Part shown: one piece after another, positions 59,130-60,326 of the stretch
How the letters are laid out: each line of letters begins with the position of its first letter
Position numbering within the stretch: position 1 is the stretch's first letter
Virus record (IMG/VR): IMGVR_UViG_3300032132_000748
Strand: one strand, 5' to 3'
Source of the DNA: a virus
Lineage: Duplodnaviria; Caudoviricetes
Length of the DNA: 64,000 nt
Made by a program: the position numbers and the translations under genes
The notes under the pieces: model-generated
Told to the model about the DNA's origin: nothing
The model's database searches: none
Seen by the model: only the letters and a program-made list of their open reading frames with translations

Positions 59130-60326
59130 ATGGCAGAAATGTTTGAGCGGAATAAGCCGCACGTCAATATTGGCACAATTGGGCACATCGCCCACGGAAA
59201 AACAACTCTTACCTCAGCTATCACTAACGTATTAGCTGAGCACGGTAAGGCCGCAGCAAAATCTTATGAAGAAATCGCTGGTAAAAGAGGTATCCGACGT
59301 AAGGAAGGCGGAGAACGTATCGCTACGGTAACCGCAGACCACGTTGAATACGAAACAGCAAGCCGCCACTATGCACACGTTGACTGCCCAGGTCACGCCG
59401 ACTATATCAAGAACATGATTACCGGTGCCGCCCAGATGGACGGCGGTATTTTGGTAGTTTCTGCTGTTGATGGCCCTATGCCTCAAACCCGTGAGCATAT
59501 TTTGCTTGCACGTCAGGTCGGTGTTCCGGCTCTTGTCGTAGCAATTAATATGGTTGATATGGTTGAGGACCAGGATCTAATTGAATTAGTCGAGGAAGAG
59601 GTTAAAGAGCTTTTGGAGCTTTACCAATTCCCTTCTGAGGAGATTCCATTTATTCGAACCAATGCTTTTGGCGCTAATCATGGCGATGCCGAAGCCCAAG
59701 AAGGTATACGCAAGTTAATGGCTGCTGTGGATGAGTACATCCCAACACCATCTCGCGATACCGAGAAGGACTTCCTAATGCCAGTGGAAAACGTTAATCA
59801 GATTCCCGGTCGTGGAACGGTTGCAACCGGACGAATCGAGCGAGGCGTTATTAACAAGGGTGATTCACTTGAGTTAGTAGGTCTCCGAGAGACGCAAACA
59901 ACTGTTTGTACGGGTATCCAAATGTTCCACAAGGAATTGGCTCAGGGCGAGCCAGGGGATAACGTCGGACTCTTGCTTCGTGGTCTTAAGGGTGAAGATA
60001 TTGAGCGAGGCCAAGTTTTGGTTAAGCCAAAGTCTGCAACTCCACATACCAAGTTCACGGCGCAGGTTTATGTCTTAAAGAAAGACGAAGGTGGGCGTCA
60101 CACCCCGTTCTTCACTGGCTATCAACCTCAGTTCTTCTTCAGGACAACTGACGTGACCGGTAGCGTTGAATTAGCGGGCGACGTAGAGATGTGTCTGCCT
60201 GGTGACCATGTTACCGTTGTAGTTACTCTTCAGAAGCCAATCGCTATCGAAGAGCAACTTCGATTCGCCGTTCGTGAAGGTGGCAAGACTGTAGCCTCCG
60301 GCTCAGTTGTTTCTATTCTAGAGTAG
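59130..60326 (+). CDS. tuf: elongation factor Tu, divergent G-motifs
   Basis: [81 protein letters not shown]. Confidence 0.95.

Follow-up and report, generated by a model that had tools for sequence, protein, structure and literature searches.

Why a phage should encode an elongation factor Tu without Asp21 and Lys136 is the question raised by this locus. The 64,000-nucleotide stretch of viral DNA analysed here (the window) carries a tuf gene (Table 1) whose product has neither the canonical G1 with Asp21 nor the canonical G4 NKxD, with Ala21 and Met136 in their place (E. coli numbering). Lys136 is the textbook guanine-binding lysine. Asp21 has been described as a second catalytic residue of EF-Tu, conserved across ribosome-activated GTPases, and its change to Ala in E. 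coli slows ribosome-triggered GTP hydrolysis about 1000-fold (PMC5084732).

The one sequence run that contains the stretch is a marine metagenome, and the protein is recorded on a contig of about 859 kb. Its genes include those for PolA, ribonucleotide reductase, dUTPase, dNMP kinase, ThyA, DHFR, sigma-70, PrkA/SpoVR and Ro60, at 41% GC, and from this gene content we call the source a giant phage. The region 1-51030 also codes for two PrkA-domain proteins, a SpoVR-like protein, a Ro60/TROVE protein and a ClpB-like ATPase. In 2025 a genome of 841 kb was reported as the largest of any phage; the contig (L286), the viral nature of which is judged from the window genes, exceeds it. Among named cellular sequences, those closest to the window's sigma factor are from Planctomycetota, and homologues of this factor are recorded on contigs of 600 and 938 kb. 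The tuf gene sits among nucleotide-metabolism genes, with no tRNA gene within the 64 kb. Five back-to-back tRNA-like genes, atypical in that four have irregular anticodon loops, lie about 5 kb past the window end (L286:20219-20606), 9 kb downstream of tuf. No Rfam family was found within the window.

Table 1. Features of the tuf gene, its product and its flanks in the window (residue numbers 216 to 382 and those of switch I follow E. coli EF-Tu; aa ranges follow the window protein)
Feature	Position	Strand	Basis or remark
Shine-Dalgarno AGGAGA, ATG 5 nt on	59119..59124	+	Sequence; AGGAG core also in L028, L175 and L177
tuf, 398-aa EF-Tu of a phage clade of apparent Planctomycetota-lineage derivation	59130..60326	+	ORF, Pfam domains, tree, TIGR00485 score
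G1/P-loop GHIAHGKT, aa 18-25, Ala at the Asp21 position (host lineage: Ser)	59181..59204	+	Asp loss evidently host-inherited
Switch I with host-type insert; Arg58, Thr61 and His66 kept; phage-fixed Ile60Ala, Ile62Val and Ser65Asp	59268..59342	+	Low confidence in structure model
G3 DCPG and catalytic His84, invariant; DCPGH at aa 85-89	59382..59396	+	Clade alignment
G4 NMVD, aa 140-143, Met at the Lys136 position	59547..59558	+	Evidently host-inherited; 26/28 host sequences
G5 variant TNAF, aa 177-180; Ser173Asn	59658..59669	+	3/25 clade members; not characteristic of the clade
Domain II pocket: Asn at Asp216, Asn at Phe218	59790..59798	+	Both positions changed in 25/25 clade members
Domain II pocket: Gln at Glu259, His at Arg262	59919..59930	+	16/25 and 23/25 clade members
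Thr382, the Doc kinase site, kept as Thr	60288..60290	+	Clade alignment
Probable intrinsic terminator: 12-bp hairpin and short U tail	60344..60371	+	Fold z = -6.8; similar hairpins 3' of the gene in homologous loci

The product contains the three EF-Tu Pfam domains (PF00009, PF03144 and PF03143), scores 609 bits against the TIGR00485 EF-Tu equivalog (cut-off 522) and is about 60% identical to E. coli EF-Tu. SelB, aIF2-gamma and EF-1-alpha were rejected as alternative assignments, all three scores being below the cut-offs (150 vs 242, 114 vs 514 and 202 vs 540 bits, respectively). An earlier note on this DNA, made from the letters alone, had read the altered G1, G4 and G5 motifs and the intact DCPG and His84 as they are given in Table 1, and had called the protein otherwise well conserved. 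These readings are accurate, and of 158 near-invariant EF-Tu columns the protein departs from no more than 6. The G1 and G4 changes are common to 25 phage-clade homologues; the G5 change is present in the window protein but is confined to a small minority of the clade. The RGITI word is absent from switch I, as had been noted, yet in the clade alignment Arg58 and the Mg-binding Thr61 stay in register. The note was also right about the strong ribosome-binding site, and the terminator that it had assigned to the gene is probable, although a simple terminator scan of the window did not list this hairpin.

About fifty homologues lack Asp21, nearly all of them with Met at Lys136. One set lies on phage-like contigs; the other is the housekeeping tuf of Planctomycetota, found in metagenome-assembled genomes (MAGs) in the operon context secE-nusG-rplKAJL-rpoBC with tRNA genes, mostly tRNA-Thr, upstream. 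In one GTDB class of uncultured Planctomycetota, tuf matches occur in 14 of 18 genomes, and Ser21 is found in 10 of these 14, eight of them with Met136. No canonical tuf copy was found in the 10 Ser21 genomes, which are incomplete MAGs and could hide one; where they have additional tuf copies, these are paralogues that have degenerated further or a truncated gene of the phage type. All 10 encode EF-Ts (tsf occurs in 17 of the 18 genomes of the class), with Arg12, Lys23, Asp80 and Phe81 kept, so that a loss of EF-Ts by the host lineage is ruled out. EF-G, LepA and BipA keep the Asp and NKxD in the three altered genomes that were checked, so that the change is specific to EF-Tu. The host-lineage EF-Tu itself lacks RGITI and carries an insert in switch I, which bears out the resemblance to PVC-type switch I that had been pointed out in the earlier note; otherwise it has Ser21, Ile60, Ser65 and a canonical pocket.

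In this comparison with host-lineage tuf, which the earlier note had set as a test of its reading, the losses of Asp21 and Lys136 turned out to be standard in a donor housekeeping EF-Tu that keeps its EF-Ts, the outcome that by the note's own standard refutes it for these two changes. Judged from these alignments, the oddity of G1 and G4 is a property of the host lineage rather than of the phage, and the window protein is an EF-Tu variant, not a member of some other family. It follows that EF-Ts independence or EF-Ts sequestration, both proposed earlier, cannot be inferred from the G1 and G4 losses; in addition, the window protein's clade keeps the helix D acids and the domain III patch, i.e. 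the EF-Ts interface. As to resistance to Lit, which cuts in RGITI, the host EF-Tu is already without that word, and the Lit protease family had no match in the 18 host-class genomes, nor in control genomes.

Because Asp21Ala is so slow in E. coli, something must compensate for it; no compensating change was found, and 23S rRNA, whose sarcin-ricin loop is a candidate site for one, was not recovered from the altered host genomes. In host-class EF-Ts (L136-L138, L181-L189), Met20 is replaced by Gly and the Lys50-Lys51 stretch is missing, as is the case in all 10 altered genomes. The same features occur in a genome of which the EF-Tu motifs are canonical (G015), and Lys51 is also not conserved in M. 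tuberculosis; co-evolution of EF-Tu and EF-Ts in the host class is thus only suggestive. Asp21 is also lost in the sole detected tuf of two Chloroflexota, a Parcubacteria, a Myxococcales and other Planctomycetota MAGs, all incomplete, and the Myxococcales copy has Met136 as well. More widely, EF-Tus with Ala or Ser in place of Asp21 are found repeatedly among Dehalococcoidia, Anaerolineae, Patescibacteria and a number of Planctomycetota groups (L041-L044, L057, L078, L084, L094 and others); in the cases checked, such a copy is the only one found. A lineage whose only detected housekeeping EF-Tu lacks Asp21 and Lys136, together with genomes lacking Asp21 alone, would provide natural tests of ribosome-triggered GTP hydrolysis.

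The origin of the phage gene was addressed with a tree of 115 sequences. In it, the phage clade (27 rows; SH-aLRT 98) branches among host genes and has three cellular paralogues as its sister group. In a control tree from which the G1, switch I, G4 and G5 columns had been removed, the grouping of phage and host still holds (99/98, including two basal host-lineage sequences with canonical motifs), and the Asp21-less group receives 90/88. Whether the phage clade is nested in the host clade or sister to it is not separated by the AU test (p = 0.27). The nearest cellular relatives of the window protein are host-class EF-Tus (68-73% identity). Taken together, the trees and motifs indicate that the tuf of this phage lineage came from an uncultured group of Planctomycetota which was already without Asp21 and Lys136. 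The GC3 of the window gene is 0.45, like that of the phage, and that of its bacterial relatives is 0.87-0.91, so that the gene has long been resident in the phage. Phage records of GenBank gave matches of no more than 64% identity, which resemble contamination by host DNA, and a search of IMG/VR found no member of the window's phage clade.

Traffic in the other direction also occurred. Phage-type tuf copies lie in chromosomal contexts of 66-74% GC, at least two of them with the phage RNA leader, and one genome of the class (G012) has a 5'-truncated phage-type remnant syntenic with an intact copy; from this, tuf genes also moved back from phages to bacterial chromosomes. These exchanges tie the phages to the host class, which is probably also where the present host of the window phage belongs. 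Three stand-alone second tuf paralogues in host-class chromosomes (L163, L164 and L166), the sister group of the phage clade, have a G4 of Thr-Met-x-Asp and Lys at Phe218, and G5 is altered in two of them. Mis-binned phage DNA may account for a phage-like 400-kb contig (L031, P0043) filed in a MAG named Nitrospira sp., and for an EF-Tu of the second phage group described below (L171) that sits in genome G017.

The earlier note saw no sign of decay in the gene, and the substitution rates agree. Compared with its nearest relative (91% identical), dN is 0.06 at near-saturated dS, the lowest dN of seven syntenic genes; the gene is under purifying selection. Across the clade, 136 of the 158 near-invariant columns are kept, and the retained residues include Thr61, Asp80 and His84 (each in 25/25), His66, Lys89, Asn90, Glu215, Thr228, Phe261, Asn273, Arg318 and Glu378. 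An AlphaFold model of the window protein, informative on fold only and not on activity, adopts the closed GTP-form domain arrangement (TM 0.91), with switch I unresolved. Domain II is the most variable domain in the phage clade (0.70 identity vs 0.82 among hosts).

Fixed or near-fixed differences between phage and host sequences include Ser21Ala, Ile60Ala, Ile62Val, Ser65Asp, Arg262His, Ile376Val, Gly384Ala and Ala385Ser. The changes specific to the phage, that is, Ile60Ala, Ser65Asp and those in the domain II pocket, are not among the changes flagged earlier. Within the clade, Asp216 is replaced by Asn, Gly or Ser, Phe218 by Cys, Asn or His, Arg262 by His and, often, Glu259 by Gln. The aminoacyl-end pocket of the window protein is therefore not canonical: His66, Glu215, Thr228, Phe261 and Asn273 are kept, and Asp216, Phe218 and Glu259 are changed. 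Glu259 and Arg262 we take to be contacts of the tRNA 3' end. Positions 216 and 218 line the amino-acid pocket of EF-Tu (PMC6386890, PMC4150793). A cellular set of 143 sequences, many of them from Verrucomicrobia and Planctomycetota, has Asp216 in 142 cases, Phe218 in 139 cases and Glu259 in 141, and His262 occurs in 11 Chloroflexota; three of the four pocket positions are thus near-invariant there. These replacements suggest a pocket that was re-tuned after capture and became less negative and roomier.

Similar changes were found in a second group of phage EF-Tus (n = 19), comprising one binned contig and 18 IMG/VR loci, of which 16 lie on contigs 62-619 kb long. This group has canonical G1 and G4, and tRNA genes lie near all 18 IMG/VR loci. 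Asp216 is replaced in 14 of the 19 and kept in five (in the window's clade it is kept in 0/25), and Phe218His, Glu259Gln and Arg262His are found in 12, 18 and 16 members, respectively. The two groups fall apart in the best tree; the AU test, however, does not reject a single origin (p = 0.125; p = 0.54 for domain II alone). The per-domain identity of the window's clade is 0.64-0.72 with the host and 0.49-0.54 with the second phage group. A single origin would need reversions at 21, 60, 65 and 136, so that convergence is the likelier source of the shared pocket changes, though not proven. Four recurring changes in two phage groups offer a testable handle on why huge phages carry EF-Tu, for which there has so far been a general hypothesis.

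The reading that we consider best, with a probability of roughly 0.6, is that the window protein still functions as an EF-Tu, supports translation for the phage and has had its tRNA pocket re-tuned. A tuf gene would have been captured from the Planctomycetota group after that group's loss of Asp21 and Lys136; its product would bind GTP, load aminoacyl-tRNA, be triggered through His84 on the host ribosome and then be recycled by host EF-Ts. After capture, switch I and the pocket for the amino acid and the tRNA 3' end would have been re-tuned, which most likely alters which charged tRNAs are held and how tightly, so that phage tRNAs and mRNAs may be served during infection. What the data show is where the gene came from, that its G1 and G4 losses were inherited, that it is under purifying selection, and where the pocket changes lie and that they recur; we infer both its translational activity and why it was re-tuned. 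Aminoacyl-tRNA binds more weakly when Glu259 is substituted, and the pocket changes could thus also mean less tRNA carriage.

A resistant copy, one of the roles suggested in the earlier note, remains as a rival and is possible, if not probable: a functional EF-Tu that, through its altered switch I and domain II surface, escapes a host defence protein, a toxin or an antibiotic acting on the host EF-Tu by binding or modification. It overlaps with the preferred reading, the selective cause being escape instead of tRNA tuning. Three of the altered residues, Asp216, Glu259 and Arg262, are among the strongest contacts of GE2270A (PMC8183687), and the defence protein Avs7 binds EF-Tu via domains II and III (PMC13581612). 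TreTu ADP-ribosylates Asp21 and leaves Asp21Ala unmodified (PMC9825190); however, Asp21 was already lost in the host, so the phage would gain no advantage over host EF-Tu. Streptomyces secondary EF-Tus, which are reported to be inhibitor-resistant (PMC4342817), also change 21, 216 and 218 in the loci compared, and the phage-type copies found in bacterial chromosomes fit with a resistant spare as well. Nevertheless, resistance to Doc or to a protease by loss of the target site, as had been proposed, does not hold: Thr382 is kept in 24 of 25 clade members, and Arg58, the cut site of type IV Thoeris, is present in all 25 (the host has Lys there). The Arg/Lys-rich switch I region could still be cut by an arginine-specific protease, and in the host class no particular system directed against EF-Tu was recognised.

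The decoy, the other role suggested, is doubtful. Here the protein would be a non-delivering or dominant-negative form; by binding EF-Ts, tRNA or a defence sensor, it would hold back translation in the host. E. coli Lys136 mutants do bind EF-Ts and inhibit growth, the EF-Ts interface of the phage protein is intact while its tRNA pocket is altered, and the sister cellular paralogues are more degenerate. Lys136Met, however, is also found in the host housekeeping copy, and the residues for catalysis, for ribosome contact and for the T-stem are all conserved, which would be superfluous in a pure sponge. Moreover, the phage needs translation, and its relatives co-encode tRNA arrays and other translation factors, with tuf lying within arrays of 27-34 tRNAs together with IF3, a release factor, RRF or a tRNA synthetase.

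A role outside translation, as a chaperone, in virion assembly or as an RNA-binding scaffold, in which relaxed selection would have let the pocket decay, we regard as improbable. Such a role would suit the variability of domain II and the neighbourhood of the window gene, and EF-Tu is known to act in T4 head assembly and in Q-beta replicase (PMC13157829); but the pocket changes are confined to the same few residues in two phage groups, with the neighbouring Glu215, Thr228 and Phe261 invariant, which does not look like decay. An assembly error or pseudogene can be dismissed, as two Logan contigs (about 30x; possibly the source sample itself) span the stretch with 0 differences, the 25 clade homologues have the same motifs and dN is low.

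If the preferred reading of a working, re-tuned EF-Tu is extended, giant phages may at least twice have evolved an EF-Tu with a distinct tRNA clientele, a partly private decoding channel, while the donor bacteria translate without Asp21 or Lys136. This extension is tentative, and so is the clientele that it envisages, namely tRNAs that are encoded by the phage, are atypical or have been altered by a defence of the host.

Compared with bacterial EF-Tu in general, the window protein shares the three-domain fold, Thr61, Asp80, His84 and most tRNA- and EF-Ts-contact residues, but differs in the absence of Asp21, Lys136 and RGITI, in Ile60Ala and Ser65Asp, and at Asp216, Phe218, Glu259 and Arg262. 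With the host-class EF-Tu (MAGs J058, HKST-UBA89, NORP233 and ACE_NR_PLAN1) it has in common the loss of Asp21, Lys136Met and the inserted switch I, whereas the host has Ser21, Ile60, Ser65, a canonical pocket and a GC3 of about 0.9 (0.45 in the window). The actinomycete secondary EF-Tu (actEF-Tu, Streptomyces EF-Tu3), which is reported to be stress-expressed and inhibitor-resistant (PMC4342817), is similarly a divergent extra copy, altered at 21, 216 and 218 in the loci compared; in contrast to the phage protein it belongs to a separate cellular lineage, and its Lys136 and Glu259 are unchanged. EF-Tu variants engineered to take acidic or bulky amino acids are changed at the same positions 216 and 218 and do so by removing acid groups, which the phage pocket likewise loses (PMC6386890). 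These variants (EF-Sep, EF-pY and Asp216Ala) differ in that they also change His66, Glu215 or Asn273, all kept by the phage. The phage proteins could accordingly serve as natural candidates for EF-Tu variants with altered amino-acid tolerance.

Huge phages are known to encode EF-Tu, and the role suggested for it is to keep translation efficient (Al-Shayeb et al. 2020, PMC7162821); a term search of the main text of that paper found no account of motif or pocket changes. Beyond these elongation factors, a donor lineage is identified here and a recurrent pocket signature is described for the window's clade. No published description of either the host lineage's EF-Tu or the pocket signature was found in the open-access literature.

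The regions upstream of the genes also show conserved elements. The leader of the window gene (59055-59129) has short motifs and a Shine-Dalgarno-adjacent hairpin common to L028 and L175, and it folds no better than shuffled sequences (z = -0.9). A second phage subgroup (L031:9844-10003 and 17 related loci) has a conserved tuf leader, absent from the window and without an Rfam match, that forms two three-way junctions. Two helices of the upstream junction are 100% paired with compensatory changes, and the downstream junction pairs across the Shine-Dalgarno sequence; this arrangement may permit translational autoregulation. In the arrays of L031, L173 and L174, several phage tRNAs have GTGC or GTGA where the T-loop usually has GTTC.
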